A stretch of 64,000 nucleotides of DNA from IMG/VR virus record IMGVR_UViG_3300011113_000415; one strand, given 5' to 3'. Of the stretch, positions 2 through 49,940 are shown piece by piece (position 1 is the first letter of the stretch; the number at the start of each line of letters is the position of its first letter). The notes below the pieces were generated by a model. That model made no database searches, was not told the origin of the DNA, and was given only the letters and a program-made list of their open reading frames with translations. This DNA is from a virus (lineage: Duplodnaviria > Caudoviricetes). The position numbers and the translations under genes are program-made.

Positions 2-523
2 GATCCAGGCATTCCAGGTATCACCCGTCCTGATGTGGTGGCAGCATTAAATCTAGACTCTAGCAATCTACCCAACACTGTGCAGGTAGGAAGCATCACA
101 GTGGACGAAGACTATCGTGGTCGCGGCCTGGCCAAGGCCTTGTACGGCATTGTGTTGACCATCATGCGAAAGAATCTTGTGAGTGGTTCCGGTCAAACAC
201 CAGGTGGTCGTAAGAACTGGATGAGCCTGGCCACCATACCCGGAGTCGAAGTTCATGGACTGGTAAGAATTCCCAACCAAATCTTTGACCTAGAACGAAC
301 CGCCACAGTCTCTCCACAATGGAAGAAATACGCTGACCGAACCATGGATCAGATCATGCAACTGGGTGGGCAGTTCTACAGCAAAGATAATAATAGCACG
401 TATTGGTTGTTTGATGTTGTGCCCGGCAAAGGTCAACTACAACCTGCGGTGCGGAATTCACTCAGCCGGTTGTATGGCTATGATGCAGACAACCTGCTGT
501 TGGCCCGTTGGAGTGGAGCATGA
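2..523 (+). CDS. GNAT-like acetyltransferase domain protein (5'-truncated by window edge)
   Basis: Frame open to the window start; GNAT motif A-like VDEDYRGRGLAKALY; TGA overlaps next ATG (ATGA). Confidence 0.6.
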   Translation, partial: DPGIPGITRPDVVAALNLDSSNLPNTVQVGSITVDEDYRGRGLAKALYGIVLTIMRKNLVSGSGQTPGGRKNWMSLATIPGVEVHGLVRIPNQIFDLERTATVSPQWKKYADRTMDQIMQLGGQFYSKDNNSTYWLFDVVPGKGQLQPAVRNSLSRLYGYDADNLLLARWSGA

Positions 524-2475
524 GAGCACGAGAGTTTGTTAGAGAAACTGCTGTGGGGCATATTCTAACCCCACGATTTGAAATTGTAGTGGATGATCAT
601 GCCTTGGAACGTGCCCGAGAACGTGGTGTGGACCCTCAAGCAGTGGATTACATCATCAGGACTCAATTGCCCAAAGTATCACGCAAACTTGATCAAATTG
701 AAGTTAATCAAAAGTTTTGGGTATACGATTGGAGTCGCGAACTGGCCCTGGGCCTGCGTAGACTCAGTAGCACAGAGCCAAGATTTTTATTAAAAACTGT
801 GTGGCCTGGACGACCAGCCCGCACACCCGAAGCAGAACAGATCGTAAGCATCAATGAGTCAGTTGGTGCTGACCAAGTAATTATTTACGCCAATCACAAG
901 GGTGCCACAATAGATGACAGCATCAAGAACAGTCTGCCGGTGACCAACGTACCTGTAGATAAATTACAACTGTGGGAAAAGCATAAATCAATGCAGGACC
1001 CCAAAGTGGCTGACTGGGTCAATGACAAACTTTTACCAGAACTCAAACAAAATGGAAAGTTAAAGCCTTTGCTGGTGTGGAACAACCATGGCAAACTTTT
1101 TGTCATAGATGGCAATCATAGGCTGATAGCATATCAAGAGGCAGGATTCCAAGGCCGTGTGCCCGTACAAATAGTTCCAGACAATATGATTGCTGTTTCC
1201 CAAAAGGTGGCGGAAGGCAAAGAAAACAATGGGATTAGTTTTCAAGTACAAAAAGGAAAAAACAAATTTGCTACTACTTTAAGTATTGGTAGCGACCCAG
1301 TTGGAGTATACCAATATGATGCTGATACTGGTCGTAGCATCGCCGAGGTTTATCCAGAATTCAAAGGCAAAGGATTAGGTAAATTATTAGTTTTACATGC
1401 TATCTATACCGCGGCCAAATTGGGATTAGATTTCCAAGAAGATGAATCAAGAACCTCAGAGTATGACAATGTATTAGATAGCCTGAGTAGTAATGGTTAT
1501 ATTGTAGATGATGAAGGATATTGGTATGTCACAGGCGAAGGTGAACAGTTTCTAAAACAATCATTAAAGCAAGGTGTGGCGGAAAACATGAGTCATGACA
1601 AAGATGGTCGTGCTGTGGAGGAATTAAAATCAGCATTGCTGGCCAAACGTGATCAATTGCAATCAGCCACAGATGATCAAGTGTATGATATCATTGACAA
1701 GATAATGACACGTATTGCTCGTAGCCACAGTATCAGCGGACAAAAACTGCATGACATGTGGGTAGACAAGTATCGGCAAATTCCTGACACCTGGATCATG
1801 AATGAAAAGCAAGGTGTGGCAGCAGCCGTAAAAAATATACCTGTGTCTAAGACTATAAATGAAATAGCAATATCTGGAAGTCAATTGCCTGGCAAATGGA
1901 TATCAAATACAGATTACAATAAAGTGTATGAGTTCGGCACAGGAAAAAATAATTATCGTGCTCAATTCCAGATCGACAATGCTTACAATTATGACGATGA
2001 CGACGATGATGAAGTTGCAGACGGAAAAAGTATGTTTGCTTTTTTCCAGGCACAACTTCCTAACGGCACCTGGACTGATAATATTACAAATATCAATGAG
2101 CCAGACACTTTAAAGATTTATTCTACCATGGCTGGGCTAATACAACAAATTTTAAAATCTCATCCTGAAATTTCCAGTGTCTCTCTGTTTGGTCGTGAGC
2201 GAGTCAACAACATTTATCAGAAATTATTGCAACGTAATATTACCAAAGTTCTTCCAGGTTGGCAAGTTACCAGTCAGGGCATTGAGAGACTTGAACCCAC
2301 AATGGCCGAAAACTTTGCTGATGGCAAGGGCCCGGGTCGTCCAGGTGACAGCCAACGACATGGAATACCTAAAAAAGCCACCATGGCTGAACTGGAAAAA
2401 GCCGCACATGCCAAGGGCCGTAAAGGACAACTGGCCCGGTGGCAACTGAACATGCGACGGGGTAAAAAGAAATGA
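520..2475 (+). CDS. Multidomain putative virion internal polyprotein (ParB/Srx-like, GNAT-like and basic C-terminal modules)
   Basis: Start MRAREFVRE; ParB-like VIDGNHRL; GNAT-like PEFKGKGLGK; modules separated by KVAEG/QGVAE/TMAEN linkers. Confidence 0.6.
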   Translation: MRAREFVRETAVGHILTPRFEIVVDDHALERARERGVDPQAVDYIIRTQLPKVSRKLDQIEVNQKFWVYDWSRELALGLRRLSSTEPRFLLKTVWPGRPARTPEAEQIVSINESVGADQVIIYANHKGATIDDSIKNSLPVTNVPVDKLQLWEKHKSMQDPKVADWVNDKLLPELKQNGKLKPLLVWNNHGKLFVIDGNHRLIAYQEAGFQGRVPVQIVPDNMIAVSQKVAEGKENNGISFQVQKGKNKFATTLSIGSDPVGVYQYDADTGRSIAEVYPEFKGKGLGKLLVLHAIYTAAKLGLDFQEDESRTSEYDNVLDSLSSNGYIVDDEGYWYVTGEGEQFLKQSLKQGVAENMSHDKDGRAVEELKSALLAKRDQLQSATDDQVYDIIDKIMTRIARSHSISGQKLHDMWVDKYRQIPDTWIMNEKQGVAAAVKNIPVSKTINEIAISGSQLPGKWISNTDYNKVYEFGTGKNNYRAQFQIDNAYNYDDDDDDEVADGKSMFAFFQAQLPNGTWTDNITNINEPDTLKIYSTMAGLIQQILKSHPEISSVSLFGRERVNNIYQKLLQRNITKVLPGWQVTSQGIERLEPTMAENFADGKGPGRPGDSQRHGIPKKATMAELEKAAHAKGRKGQLARWQLNMRRGKKK

Positions 2476-5425: not shown

Positions 5426-6402
5426 TGATACTGAACGAATTTTTTAATTTACCCCAAGTGTTTGAAAAGGACATGACCGAAGTTCAAAGTCAGCATACTG
5501 ACATGACTGTGGCACAACAAGTATTCAAAGACAATCCCAACATTGACCACGAAGATGACATATTGAATGCGGCATTTCCCTATGTGGTCGAACTAGTCGG
5601 CAGTCGCAAACGTGCCAACTACATGTTCAACTACGATGAAGACTTCCCCAGTGATTTGATCGGTGCCTATAGATATCTACAAAGAGACCAACATGATGTG
5701 GGCTTGGAGGAAGGCGAACCTGGCGACCTAGAACACGAATTAGAAAAGCAAGATTATCAGCGCAGACAACAGCGTGATAGTGATGCAGAAAAAGAATTAA
5801 ACAAACAGCAAGGTGTGGCGGAAGGCACGGATGAACTAGCAAAACAATATGGTTGGGCATACAATCAAGGCGAGTACGGAGCATCAATGACGCATCCAAA
5901 ACACGGTCGCATTTCGCTTAGTTCTCCAATTACCAGTAGAAGCGGAGATACCGCAGTTGAACGTGAGTGGACACATAATAATGCCAGTGGTGTTGGTGAT
6001 AGATCATTAGCACAGCATTTGCAAAGTTTGAAAGAGCAAGATGTGGCAGAAGGCATCTTTGGCTCTAAGCCAAATCCGGTGCTTCCCTTAGTTGACAAAA
6101 TTGCCAAGTTGGCCGGAGGACTCACTCCACAAAACGTTGAAGTTGGTAAACAAATTATTCAGGCCAATGTTAGAAATATCCAACGCATGTTGAGCCCACA
6201 AATCAAACCCGGTGTTGAGATTATCGAAGCCAAAGGCGACTATGTGCCACCTAAAGAAGCCGACTATGGTCCAGAATATCAGGCCATGGTAAAACGTGTG
6301 GGTCAAAAGGCCCGAGCACAAGAAAAAGCCAAACAACAACCGCCAAAAGCACCTGTGCGTGAAAGCCGTCTAGCATTGTTGAAACACATCATCCAATCAT
6401 AA
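5425..6402 (+). CDS. Modular putative head internal polyprotein
   Basis: Leader MILNEFF; QGVAEG and QDVAEG linkers separating modules. Confidence 0.55.
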   Translation: MILNEFFNLPQVFEKDMTEVQSQHTDMTVAQQVFKDNPNIDHEDDILNAAFPYVVELVGSRKRANYMFNYDEDFPSDLIGAYRYLQRDQHDVGLEEGEPGDLEHELEKQDYQRRQQRDSDAEKELNKQQGVAEGTDELAKQYGWAYNQGEYGASMTHPKHGRISLSSPITSRSGDTAVEREWTHNNASGVGDRSLAQHLQSLKEQDVAEGIFGSKPNPVLPLVDKIAKLAGGLTPQNVEVGKQIIQANVRNIQRMLSPQIKPGVEIIEAKGDYVPPKEADYGPEYQAMVKRVGQKARAQEKAKQQPPKAPVRESRLALLKHIIQS

Positions 6403-48079: not shown

Positions 48080-48463
48080 ATGTCTTACAAAACCTACTAC
48101 TGCGAGCACTGTAGATCCCCTTATGGCTGGGTGCAACAAGAACAAACACCGGGCTATTGCAGTACCCGATGCCGCAGTGCAGACTCAAGTCGTCAGGCAA
48201 AGAAATCATTTGATCAGATACAACTGGATCGAATAGCCAGTAGAATTCCAGCAAGTGCAAAAAATTCAGAAACCCTGGCACCGCGTCAAGACCGTGAGCC
48301 AACGCCGTTGCGCGAACAACGCTGTGAGTGCTGTGGTATAACAGAACACAATGGCCTGCCCATCCGGTTTCGTTGGTTCCGCATTGATGGCAACGAGTAC
48401 AATGACAATCCGCCCAATTTAAGACTGTTATGCCCTAACTGCTTGAGTCAACAAACTACCTAG
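48080..48463 (+). CDS. Degenerate HNH-like zinc-binding protein
   Basis: CECCG...RIDGN...NLRLLCPNCLSQ with catalytic His positions replaced. Confidence 0.6.
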   Translation: MSYKTYYCEHCRSPYGWVQQEQTPGYCSTRCRSADSSRQAKKSFDQIQLDRIASRIPASAKNSETLAPRQDREPTPLREQRCECCGITEHNGLPIRFRWFRIDGNEYNDNPPNLRLLCPNCLSQQTT

Positions 48464-48472
48464 GATTTTGCT

Positions 48473-48655
48473 ATGACCCGGACCTTGATTTGGGTGTTAT
48501 CGTTTAGTGTGCTGGGCCCTGTACCCGAAAGCGGAGAACTGGCCAAGTACAAAACTCAAGCAGAATGCGAACAAGCAAAAATTCAAAAACGCGAAGAGTA
48601 TCAGGCTCAGAAAAAACGCATTGTGGCCAGTTGTCATCCCAGCACCAAAGGTTGA
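48473..48655 (+). CDS. Small hypothetical protein
   Basis: Signal-like N-terminus; two Cys. Confidence 0.5.
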   Translation: MTRTLIWVLSFSVLGPVPESGELAKYKTQAECEQAKIQKREEYQAQKKRIVASCHPSTKG

Positions 48656-48680
48656 CAAACAATCAAAATAAATATATAAT
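48652..48680 (+). promoter_or_regulatory. Consensus sigma70 promoter of the permuted tmRNA gene
   Basis: TTGACA-17-TATAAT. Confidence 0.85.
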
Positions 48681-48686
48681 ACTGAG

Positions 48687-48751
48687 AACAGCGTAAACTG
48701 CGATTCAGAAAAGGATTCAAGACGGCGGGGCAGTGCCGCCCAGGTCCACCA
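48687..48751 (+). ncRNA. ssrA: tmRNA acceptor piece (permuted two-piece ssrA, transcribed first)
   Basis: GATTCAA helix-2 strand, GAC, T-arm GGCGG-GGCAGTG-CCGCC, CAGGTCC-A-CCA 3' end; 5' boundary approximate. Confidence 0.88.
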
Positions 48752-48763
48752 TAAGGAAGTTTG

Positions 48764-49132
48764 ATGCGTATTACTGAGATTGCTAATACAAAACTATCAT
48801 TTAAAACAACAAAAGGCAGTAATGCTATTGGTGTTGAAATGAACGTTGACGGGCAATACGCAGGGATGTTTCAATACGATGCAGGTAACGGAAGAAGTTT
48901 AGTAGAGTTAGATCCAGACTTTCAAGGCAAAGGTTTGGGTAAAATTCTAATACTAAAAGAAATCTATACTGCTATCATGTCTGGATTAGACTATGTAGAA
49001 GATGAGTCACGCACCCAAGCATTTGATAATGCTATGAATAGTTTGGCAGACGCTGGTTACATAGTCAATGATGACGAGTATTGGTATGTCACTAGTGAAG
49101 GTGAGCAATATCTCAAACAAGTTTCTTTATGA
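48764..49132 (+). CDS. GNAT-like module encoded in the tmRNA intervening segment
   Basis: AAGGAAG RBS; PDFQGKGLGK; about half of residues identical to the module at 1222-1566; TGA ends 1 nt before the tmRNA 5' end. Confidence 0.8.
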   Translation: MRITEIANTKLSFKTTKGSNAIGVEMNVDGQYAGMFQYDAGNGRSLVELDPDFQGKGLGKILILKEIYTAIMSGLDYVEDESRTQAFDNAMNSLADAGYIVNDDEYWYVTSEGEQYLKQVSL

Positions 49133-49133
49133 T

Positions 49134-49313
49134 GGGCCTGACACAGGATCGATTGGGTCAAGAGTAGGGATAGTGGCGCTCGGTAAGGTAGAAGCCGTTA
49201 GGGTTGGGAGTTCCCAGCCGAAGAAGCAAAAAAAGTAAAGGCAAACGACTCACAGTTCCAATTGGCCGCGTAAAGTAGCCTAGGGTAGGAAATACCTCGT
49301 AACAGAAACCACC
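49134..49313 (+). ncRNA. ssrA: tmRNA coding piece; tag (A)ANDSQFQLAA at 49241-49273
   Basis: 5' GGGCCTG pairs with CAGGTCC (G3:U70); TTGGGTC pairs with GATTCAA; resume codon GCA; 3' boundary approximate. Confidence 0.9.
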
Positions 49314-49314
49314 A

Positions 49315-49338
49315 AGGCCCGCTTCGGTGGGCTTTTTT
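49315..49338 (+). terminator. Intrinsic terminator after tmRNA
   Basis: GCCCGC-TTCG-GTGGGC followed by TTTTT. Confidence 0.85.
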
Positions 49339-49355: not shown

Positions 49356-49940
49356 ATGATAGTTTATATTCACGGTGCCAGTGCCACTGCCGAAAGTTTC
49401 ACACACATAAGAGAATACGTTAGAGAGCATACAGAACTGCCAGACACTGCCTTGGAATACAAGAGCGATGATGGTTTTGATCATAACCTTGGCCGCATGA
49501 TGGGACAACTGGATGACGCTGAACGGCTGTTCTTTGTGAGTCACAGCCTGGGTGGTATCTATGCCTTGTGCTTGGCCAACCACTATCGTGATCGTACCTT
49601 GGGCGGGGTGAGTCTCTCAACACCCTATGGTGGAAGCAAACAAGCAGACTTTGCCAGATACTTTTTGCCATTCAATCAACTGATGAAAGACATTGGTACC
49701 ATGAGTGAGCCCATGGCCGAATCAAGACGACTACCAGCACCCCCACGTTGGACCAATGTTGTGACCACAGTGGGCGACAGTCCTTGGATAACCGAGCCCA
49801 ATGATGGCGTGGTCACACTGGCCAGCATGCGAGCAAGAAAAGACTTTGAACTGGTAGAACTGCCACTGAACCACTATGAAGTGGTACTCAGCAATCAAGT
49901 GGTGCGCTTGATCCTAGACAGAATCAATGGTGCCTTATGA
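49356..49940 (+). CDS. Alpha/beta-hydrolase
   Basis: YIHG, SHSLGG, NDGVV, late NH. Confidence 0.82.
   Translation: MIVYIHGASATAESFTHIREYVREHTELPDTALEYKSDDGFDHNLGRMMGQLDDAERLFFVSHSLGGIYALCLANHYRDRTLGGVSLSTPYGGSKQADFARYFLPFNQLMKDIGTMSEPMAESRRLPAPPRWTNVVTTVGDSPWITEPNDGVVTLASMRARKDFELVELPLNHYEVVLSNQVVRLILDRINGAL

Follow-up and report, generated by a model that had tools for sequence, protein, structure and literature searches.

A predicted GNAT-fold cassette of phage mosaic proteins as probable cargo of a permuted tmRNA gene

Introduction

Two-piece tmRNAs, which are encoded by circularly permuted genes, were reportedly described by Keiler in 2000 and by Sharkady and Williams in 2004. They occur in marine phages as well (PMC9004378), and one tRNA gene located in an intervening sequence was singled out as unique in a 2025 tmRNA database paper (PMC11915505). 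We found no report of protein-coding intervening segments in the tmRNA literature searched, that paper included. Phages also encode polyvalent proteins, fusions of many domains of which GNAT and ParB domains are known parts and which are thought to be delivered with the DNA (PMC5512222). In T4, entry of proteins into the head is directed by an N-terminal sequence of 10 aa (PMC9026906, PMC3012670), and the protease gp21 cuts after L/I-x-E (PMC9026906).

Here we describe a 122-aa open reading frame (ORF) that lies between the two pieces of a permuted tmRNA gene in a 64,000-nt stretch of phage DNA (IMG/VR record IMGVR_UViG_3300011113_000415; hereafter, the window). The gene resembles the two-piece tmRNAs of Alpha- and Betaproteobacteria, cyanobacteria and marine phages in having an acceptor piece with an encoded CCA, an intervening segment, a coding piece that contributes to a G3:U70 pair and a tag that ends in ...LAA. 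Unlike those tmRNAs, whose intervening segments are short and non-coding, it has a hypervariable slot for protein genes.

The tmRNA gene unit

The window belongs to a phage contig of approximately 335 kb and contains around 26 tRNA genes. It encodes a T4-type family B DNA polymerase that, among cultured phages, is closest to those of jumbo phages (51% identity to Sinorhizobium phage Phosso, 47% to Atu_ph07 and 43% to 121Q-like phages). Among 50,697 records of cultured phage genomes, neither the locus (blastn) nor the ORF (tblastn) had a match.

The permuted tmRNA was recognized by a match of positions 48690–49273 to Rfam family RF04321 (80.2 bits compared with a gathering score of 47), in which one insertion, holding the entire 122-aa ORF, separates the CCA end from the 5' GGGCCUG (Table 1). 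The acceptor piece ends in ...CAGGUCCACCA at 48751, and the acceptor stem pairs GGGCCUG with CAGGUCC, followed by ACCA, G3:U70 included. The tag frame, at 49241–49273, encodes ANDSQFQLAA. The Shine-Dalgarno leader of the ORF occupies 48752–48763, and the TGA stop codon (49130–49132) is followed by a single T before the coding piece begins. We consider ATG 48764 rather than TTG 48761 the likely start codon, because AAGGAAG is located 4 nt upstream of it and the junction is invariant in relatives. No second promoter-like site was found between the sigma-70-type promoter and the ORF. The tmRNA promoter and terminator enclose the unit, so that a ribosome-binding site is the only expression signal that the ORF has of its own.

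Table 1 Features of the tmRNA gene unit and of the mosaic-protein gene in the window
Feature	Coordinates	Strand	Basis or remark
Mosaic ('polyvalent') protein, 651 aa	520..2475	+	ORF list; ORF spans 508–2475
Upstream linker QKVAE, CAAAAGGTGGCGGAA (CAA AAG GTG GCG GAA)	1201..1215	+	
Fused GNAT-like cassette in mosaic protein	1216..1569	+	BLASTP match to free copy
Downstream linker QGVAE, exact 15-mer CAAGGTGTGGCGGAA (CAA GGT GTG GCG GAA)	1570..1584	+	
Sigma-70-type promoter of the tmRNA/ORF unit, TTGACA-17 nt-TATAAT	48652..48680	+	12/12 consensus matches
tmRNA acceptor piece (3' half of tRNA-like domain), encoded CCA at end	48690..48751	+	RF04321 alignment
Intervening segment, 382 nt: 12-nt leader TAAGGAAGTTTG with Shine-Dalgarno sequence, ORF, one base	48752..49133	+	Read from sequence
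122-aa ORF: short MRITE leader and predicted minimal GNAT-fold cassette	48764..49132	+	Free-standing copy
tmRNA coding piece, 5' GGGCCUG, G3:U70 with acceptor piece	49134..49313	+	RF04321 and RF01849 alignments
Intrinsic terminator of the unit	49314..49335	+	9-bp stem then T run

The arrangement is conserved in at least 15 relatives from IMG/VR and metagenomes, with encoded proteins that are 75–93% identical. Both spacer flanks are invariant in the 10 relatives that were aligned, and the T arm and acceptor stem of relatives carry compensatory substitutions while the junctions stay unchanged; in one relative (L039), for example, GGGCCUG/CAGGUCC has become GGGCCCG/CGGGUCC. ARAGORN, which called the tmRNAs of many relatives, including one with a 342-nt spacer (L189), gave no call for the window tmRNA (48690–49273), and standard annotation can therefore miss cargo-bearing tmRNA genes of this kind. 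The tmRNAs of two relatives, L165 and L166, pass the threshold of the betaproteobacterial two-piece model (beta_tmRNA; 115 and 95 bits compared with a gathering score of 84), and that of L038 stays under it (64.6 bits); these matches hint at betaproteobacterial hosts or a betaproteobacterial origin.

Two neighbours flank the unit on the same strand. Upstream, 48080–48463 (+) encodes a 127-aa zinc-ribbon protein with a weak YacG-like match, and downstream, 49356–49940 (+) encodes a 194-aa alpha/beta-hydrolase-like protein whose Abhydrolase_6 match (24.4 bits) is just below the cut-off. A variant arrangement was seen in two short sequences (L020, 1–638; L021, 1–515), in which the place of the acceptor piece, upstream of a GNAT-like gene with a fuller leader, MKILEVIAE, is taken by a protein gene whose stop codon overlaps the start of the GNAT-like gene; downstream comes the usual TGA-T junction, here onto GGGGGUG. 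This arrangement is either a standard tmRNA or a permuted one with a two-gene cargo. A search for longer contigs that carry it, using a degenerate leader pattern, yielded no match among viral or metagenome contigs, and its junction pattern gave 4 chance matches, which lacked both tmRNA and module.

The tmRNA spacer as a cargo slot

Permuted tmRNAs were present in 5/5 other giant-phage records that had been chosen solely because they contain the 15-mer of the downstream linker (Table 1). Their spacers measure 67–220 nt and share the flanks CCA-TAAGGA(A/G)... upstream and ...(G)TTTCTTTATGA-T-GGGCC downstream, and they contain no ORF, a 26-aa hydrophobic ORF, or unrelated ORFs of 54 and 68 aa. 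When IMG/VR was scanned with GGTCCACCATAAGGA, 118 loci were retrieved, 89 of them with a recognizable coding piece; these 89 hold at least 41 unrelated families of cargo ORFs, 21–151 aa in length. Slot cargos start 9–13 nt past the CCA and terminate either at the conserved TGA, a single base short of the coding piece, or at a stop codon of their own 12–13 nt ahead of it, and in most cases the slot supplies the last two codons and the stop (..TCT TTA TGA T|GGG). As an independent call, ARAGORN found permuted tmRNAs with ...ALAA tags in 63 of the 118 loci. Five loci with an apparent spacer of 1155 nt seem to be false regex matches and were excluded.

The cargos are diverse. Among loci L172–L289, many are hydrophobic peptides of 22–26 aa that end in the slot's own ..FL or ..SL codons, and one is an 84-aa ORF resembling thioredoxin, with a CGPC motif. 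A 120-aa slot ORF with a VLYHATY motif may be, we presume, ADP-ribosyltransferase- or Tpt1-like. All of the six largest cargo families begin with an M[RK]IxE[IL] leader. Two leader-bearing cargos other than the window ORF match internal cassettes of mosaic proteins at 57–62% identity (E ~1e-39), a 101-aa cargo resembling residues 144–247 of P0102 and a 120-aa cargo residues 283–391 of P0086. Judged from these sequence matches, the occurrence of a free mosaic-protein module in the tmRNA slot is a recurrent event rather than a one-off. The 54-aa cargo has a homologue encoded by an ordinary gene away from any tmRNA, and no fused forms were found for the 68-aa cargo (record G003), which is weak evidence.

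Mosaic proteins and their linker

A sequence-only reading of the window had proposed, from a manual ungapped alignment, that about 58 of 112 residues of the embedded ORF are identical to a segment encoded at about 1222–1566. BLASTP (query 48764–49129) reproduced this almost exactly, aligning residues 8–119 of the 122-aa ORF with residues 240–351 of the 508–2475 ORF at 59/112 identical and 80/112 positive residues with 0 gaps (E 1e-40). The QGVAE-type repeats that had been placed on either side of the segment could likewise be read in the DNA, as QKVAE on the 5' side and QGVAE on the 3' side. The mosaic protein, whose likely start is ATG 520 with the leader MRAREFVRE, comprises around five cassettes, one of them ParB-like, and a basic tail, ENFADGK...GKKK (2311–2472), for which no family match was found. 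Its first cassette (residues ~10–110) had no Pfam match; this cassette contains an H-A-L-E-R-A-R-E-R-G-V motif that we take to recall DUF4258-type toxin domains. The second, ParB-like cassette (residues ~180–225) has a weak ParBc_2 match (E 0.11) and a DGNHR motif of the ParB/Srx-like type. Only the GNAT-like cassette and the tail are common to many other mosaic proteins.

The mosaic gene is itself preceded by an ORF at 2–523 (+), the C-terminal end of a protein running off the window, whose stop codon overlaps the mosaic-gene start (ATGA). It carries a different GNAT domain that passes the Pfam cut-off (Acetyltransf_1, 23.4 bits compared with 20.7) and resembles the cassette studied here at motif A only (hhalign probability 12%).

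At the nucleotide level the two module copies of the window are 60% identical (40% of positions differ) and dS between them is saturated, which marks them as old paralogues. A quick tree of the module with SH-aLRT supports assigns them to separate subclades and nests the clade of embedded copies within the fused cassettes, this nesting being moderately supported (81–92). Embedded copies show a median pairwise dN/dS of 0.15 and a maximum of 0.28 (51 pairs), values that indicate purifying selection on an ORF that evolves as a protein-coding gene. Its length is shared by 58 homologues of 122 aa, 75–100% identical, and its frame, length and Shine-Dalgarno sequence are kept in at least 50 clusters. 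The window ORF ends in ...KQVSL and fused copies run on as ...KQSLKQGVAE; by this comparison, the terminal VSL-stop of the ORF is the tmRNA slot's own conserved flank.

The linker is conserved as DNA. All QGVAE instances that were read, from the window and three unrelated contigs, use the codons CAA GGT GT(G/A) GCG GAA, with silent sites kept. Within the window, the 15-mer occurs exactly beside the fused cassette and at 5809–5823 and in degenerate form at 1810–1824 and 6037–6051 (4 matches compared with 0.16 expected). An IMG/VR scan with it returned at least 120 loci, a count of a size that could arise by chance alone. Among the IMG/VR matches listed, 157 of 167 exact 15-mers are read as QGVAE within open frames of at least 100 aa, and 42/47 spacings are divisible by 3. 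The GNAT-like module is present in only 5/118 such frames among the matches listed, so that the linker joins many different cassettes, the GNAT-like one among them.

Of 1.84 billion cluster representatives, 163 matched a profile of the module at E ≤0.001 and 73 did so at E ≤1e-30. In nearly all of the 163, the module is one segment of a 200–1200-aa protein and can be N-terminal, central or C-terminal. The motif G[VLIM][ATSM]E is found at 45/77 upstream and 46/89 downstream module boundaries, compared with 74/2759 background windows. The basic tail, about 55 aa long, is present on 54 of 148 related proteins and is the second most widely shared piece. Neighbours change: of around 140 proteins that share the module, only 15–20 share the ParB-like neighbour seen in the window and 2–10 the other cassettes of the window's mosaic protein, and identical module sequences sit at different offsets in proteins of 253, 440, 597 and 698 aa. 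Further contexts include a 'leader-module-tail' protein of ~190–208 aa and a 961-aa protein (L033) with QGVAEG on both sides of the module. The proposal that the module is mobile is thus borne out by 163 clusters, with every position and changing neighbours represented; the accompanying idea that it exists in two contexts proved too narrow, as there are far more than two and the module is not confined to two fixed positions. By sequence comparison, the module is a widely shuffled cassette of mosaic proteins.

Fold of the module

An AlphaFold model built from an 11-sequence alignment (pLDDT 85, pTM 0.82) starts with four antiparallel strands, followed by a helix, a short strand, a second helix, a hairpin and, at the C-terminus, a further helix, an order in which the GNAT core (beta2–4, alpha3, beta5, alpha4, beta6–7) can be followed. 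The top 50 Foldseek matches in the PDB are all GNAT or MYST acetyltransferases, albeit weak ones (E 4e-3 to 4e-2). VIA-align gave Z scores of 7–8.2 over 90–109 residues to GNAT structures, which are only middling values, and in a PDB search independent of Foldseek, around 42 of the top 50 chains were GNATs that cover residues 5–120. Minimal GNATs aligned nearly end to end (YjdJ over 84/89 and At1g77540 over 85/95 residues), and every named neighbour in the ESM Atlas is a GNAT cluster (TM 0.55–0.68), several of them viral and of 105–130 aa. Motif A (Q/R/K-x-x-G-x-G) reads Q54-G-K-G57-L-G59 in the window ORF, with R or K at the first position in some relatives; G57, L58 and G59 do not vary, and the loop is located at the expected beta4–alpha3 junction.

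Other results are less straightforward. Five Pfam GNAT families match the module, none at its gathering score (E 0.012–0.2), and the N-terminal alpha1–alpha2 arm of full GNATs is missing. The best single Pfam match is HTH_45 (E 0.005, residues 86–120), residues 57–122 superpose on MarR-type winged helices with an rmsd of 2.1 Å over 63 residues, and residues 89–119 match the winged helix of eS10 (E 0.01), whose chains are the best PDB sequence matches. The GNAT-like character suggested by the sequence-only reading therefore stands at medium strength, carried by the fold and motif A and tempered by sub-threshold Pfam scores and by a C-terminal half that is also winged-helix-like. We regard a GNAT fold as likely. 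Catalytic competence, itself a prediction, we rate lower, because the Pfam GNAT matches are sub-threshold, the Z scores middling, the arm absent and winged-helix matches present. The module is probably acyl-CoA dependent.

Leaders and promoters

The start of the embedded ORF, MRITEI, had been likened to the leaders of putative head proteins, and it does resemble the M[RK]xx[ED][FILV] leaders carried by 74 of 148 related mosaic proteins. With 5 residues up to its first I-x-E, MRITE is half as long as the sequence that targets T4 proteins, so capsid targeting may or may not hold; a fuller leader, MKILEVIAE, is found in the P0045 variant. By analogy, the I-x-E of the leaders and the V-A-E of the linker fit the hydrophobic-x-Glu rule of T4 gp21, and one relative with the embedded ORF (G004, 124 kb) has a gene for a gp21-type protease (PF03420, 85.9 bits). 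The T4 late-promoter motif TATAAATA occurs at 3 sites in the 64-kb window, none of them near the mosaic genes or the tmRNA. The perfect sigma-70-type promoter of the unit is more easily read as suited to host-polymerase-driven expression of a free cytoplasmic protein.

Discussion

The account that we favour, and consider probable, is that a leader plus a minimal GNAT-fold cassette, drawn from a pool shuffled through the QGVAE linker, has been captured as cargo of the tmRNA slot. Uncultured giant T4-related phages swap such modules in frame among mosaic proteins, and the slot gives whatever enters it a promoter, a 12-nt Shine-Dalgarno leader after the CCA and, mostly, the last two codons and the stop. 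The ORF could be translated from the pre-tmRNA or from a spacer freed by RNase P and 3' end processing; should exonucleases generate the acceptor piece's 3' end, they would degrade the spacer instead of releasing it. On the favoured account, every round of phage tmRNA synthesis would yield free cytoplasmic protein, which might acylate a target of host or phage origin. Leader-bearing mosaic proteins may carry the fused copies into the head and be cleaved at V/I-x-E by a gp21-type protease, and the slot copy would be a freshly synthesized dose of the same activity.

Other explanations place the protein elsewhere or assign it a different role. Head packaging of the free copy, which the sequence-only reading had raised, and its injection, like those envisaged for the fused copies, with MRITE as a capsid-targeting leader cut by the prohead protease, strike us as rather doubtful. 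Its leader fits the M[RK]IxE[IL] consensus of the six largest slot cargos and resembles those of mosaic proteins, I-T-E obeys the L/I-x-E rule of T4 gp21 (PMC9026906), a gp21 family member is present in a relative, and the P0045 leader is fuller. However, the sole promoter is the perfect sigma-70 site shared with the tmRNA, which would be unexpected for a head-protein gene, no late-promoter motif is nearby, the leader is half as long as the T4 targeting sequence, and most other cargos, such as the tiny hydrophobic peptides and the CGPC thioredoxin-like protein, lack such a leader. Because that promoter can be read by unmodified host polymerase, the protein is probably cytoplasmic, not a head component. 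The location invites the thought that the ORF product works together with the tmRNA, modifying, for example, tmRNA itself, SmpB, aminoacyl-tRNA or a ribosomal protein. The strict co-transcription with tmRNA would suit such a role, as would the facts that RimI-like GNATs acetylate ribosomal proteins and that polyvalent-protein GNATs have been placed in that clade (PMC5512222). We nevertheless judge it improbable: the same slot holds at least 41 unrelated families or none, so the tmRNA needs no such protein, and the module is mostly fused in mosaic proteins far from any tmRNA. With that many unrelated families sharing the slot, location says little about function, and the variety of cargo argues against a dedicated role in trans-translation. 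Nothing that was found supports the translation-related target raised by the sequence-only reading.

The origin and nature of the module can also be read differently. Both copies reside in one genome, and their similarity could in principle reflect a recent within-genome duplication, or the embedded ORF could be a decaying, untranslated remnant. Saturated dS and separate subclades rule out the recent duplication, and with only 60% nucleotide identity between the copies, and a frame, length and Shine-Dalgarno sequence kept in at least 50 clusters at a dN/dS of 0.15, this explanation as a whole is scarcely credible. Far more serious, if still unlikely, is the alternative that the module is a non-enzymatic domain that binds nucleic acid or protein, made of an N-terminal beta-sheet and a winged-helix-like C-terminal half, whose GNAT likeness would be a degenerate, non-catalytic relic or at most a CoA-binding module. 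HTH_45 and the eS10 winged helix lead the Pfam and PDB sequence matches, respectively, MarR, MepR and AF1382 fit residues 57–122 at 2.1–2.5 Å, below the rmsd of any GNAT, and the arm that is absent is the acceptor-binding one. Against this stand the GNAT chains that dominate the PDB search over residues 5–120, the near-full-length alignments to YjdJ and At1g77540, the uniformly GNAT identity of the named ESM Atlas neighbours and the invariant pyrophosphate-loop motif where a GNAT should have it. The alpha3–beta5–alpha4–beta6–beta7 order of GNATs moreover resembles the helix and hairpin order of winged helices, which may explain the double match.

Capture of a shuffled cassette by the tmRNA slot is thus the reading we retain, and a more far-reaching version of it can be put forward tentatively. 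The slot might be a dedicated, hypervariable one in which cargo synthesis is coupled to tmRNA maturation and through which an effector is delivered twice, injected and freshly made. RNase P cutting at G+1 and trimming to the CCA would excise a minimal mRNA consisting of leader, ORF and stop plus one base, and the slot would be filled repeatedly from the leader-bearing cassette pool that also builds the head-delivered QGVAE mosaic proteins.

These observations link two odd traits of uncultured giant lake phages, the in-frame shuffling of cassettes and a protein-gene slot in tmRNA. Polyvalent-protein cassettes and permuted tmRNAs are of kinds already known; what is new is the link between them, an unexpected one in which the same modules move between mosaic proteins and the tmRNA slot, together with the finding of at least 41 small ORF families in a same-flanked tmRNA spacer of related giant phages. 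The 122-aa minimal GNAT is a cloneable candidate effector with more than 160 natural sequence clusters, and its transcript would be a natural example of an mRNA whose ends are both set by tRNA-like processing.

Comparison with known systems

The module is most readily compared with the GNATs of polyvalent proteins from phages and plasmids (Iyer, Burroughs, Anand, de Souza and Aravind, 2017; PMC5512222), with which it shares fused forms, here beside a ParB-like domain, and solo forms. Unlike them, it is smaller (~115 aa), lacks alpha1–alpha2, scores below Pfam thresholds and is unmatched in cultured phages; it also comes with a linker, QGVAE, that is conserved as DNA, and has one solo copy inside a tmRNA gene. 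In size (~90–100 residues) and in the order of strands and helices, it is like the minimal GNATs of the Acetyltransf_CG/NATD1 type (E. coli YjdJ, 5i0c; Arabidopsis At1g77540, 1xmt), to which it aligns with Z scores of 6.9–7.1, alongside weak PF14542 matches. It differs from these in sequence (~11% identity) and in adding a C-terminal helix and a highly conserved EDESRT loop and YWYVT hairpin.

The short hydrophobic-x-Glu leaders on hypervariable, effector-like proteins, and the gp21-family protease in a relative, recall the internal proteins IPI–III and Alt of T4 (PMC3012670, PMC9026906). In contrast to those proteins, the phage proteins described here have many cassettes per polypeptide with V-A-E at each junction, and the free copy is placed under a sigma-70-type promoter inside an RNA gene. 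A protein gene inside a tmRNA gene also has a parallel in the homing-endonuclease genes of tmRNA group I introns, although here the cargo is no homing endonuclease and there is no intron, the slot lying between two mature RNA pieces and holding effector-like cassettes. The embedded gene also recalls the tRNA punctuation of mitochondrial transcripts, in that its coding RNA would be bounded on either side by tRNA-like processing and has its stop codon at the extreme 3' end.
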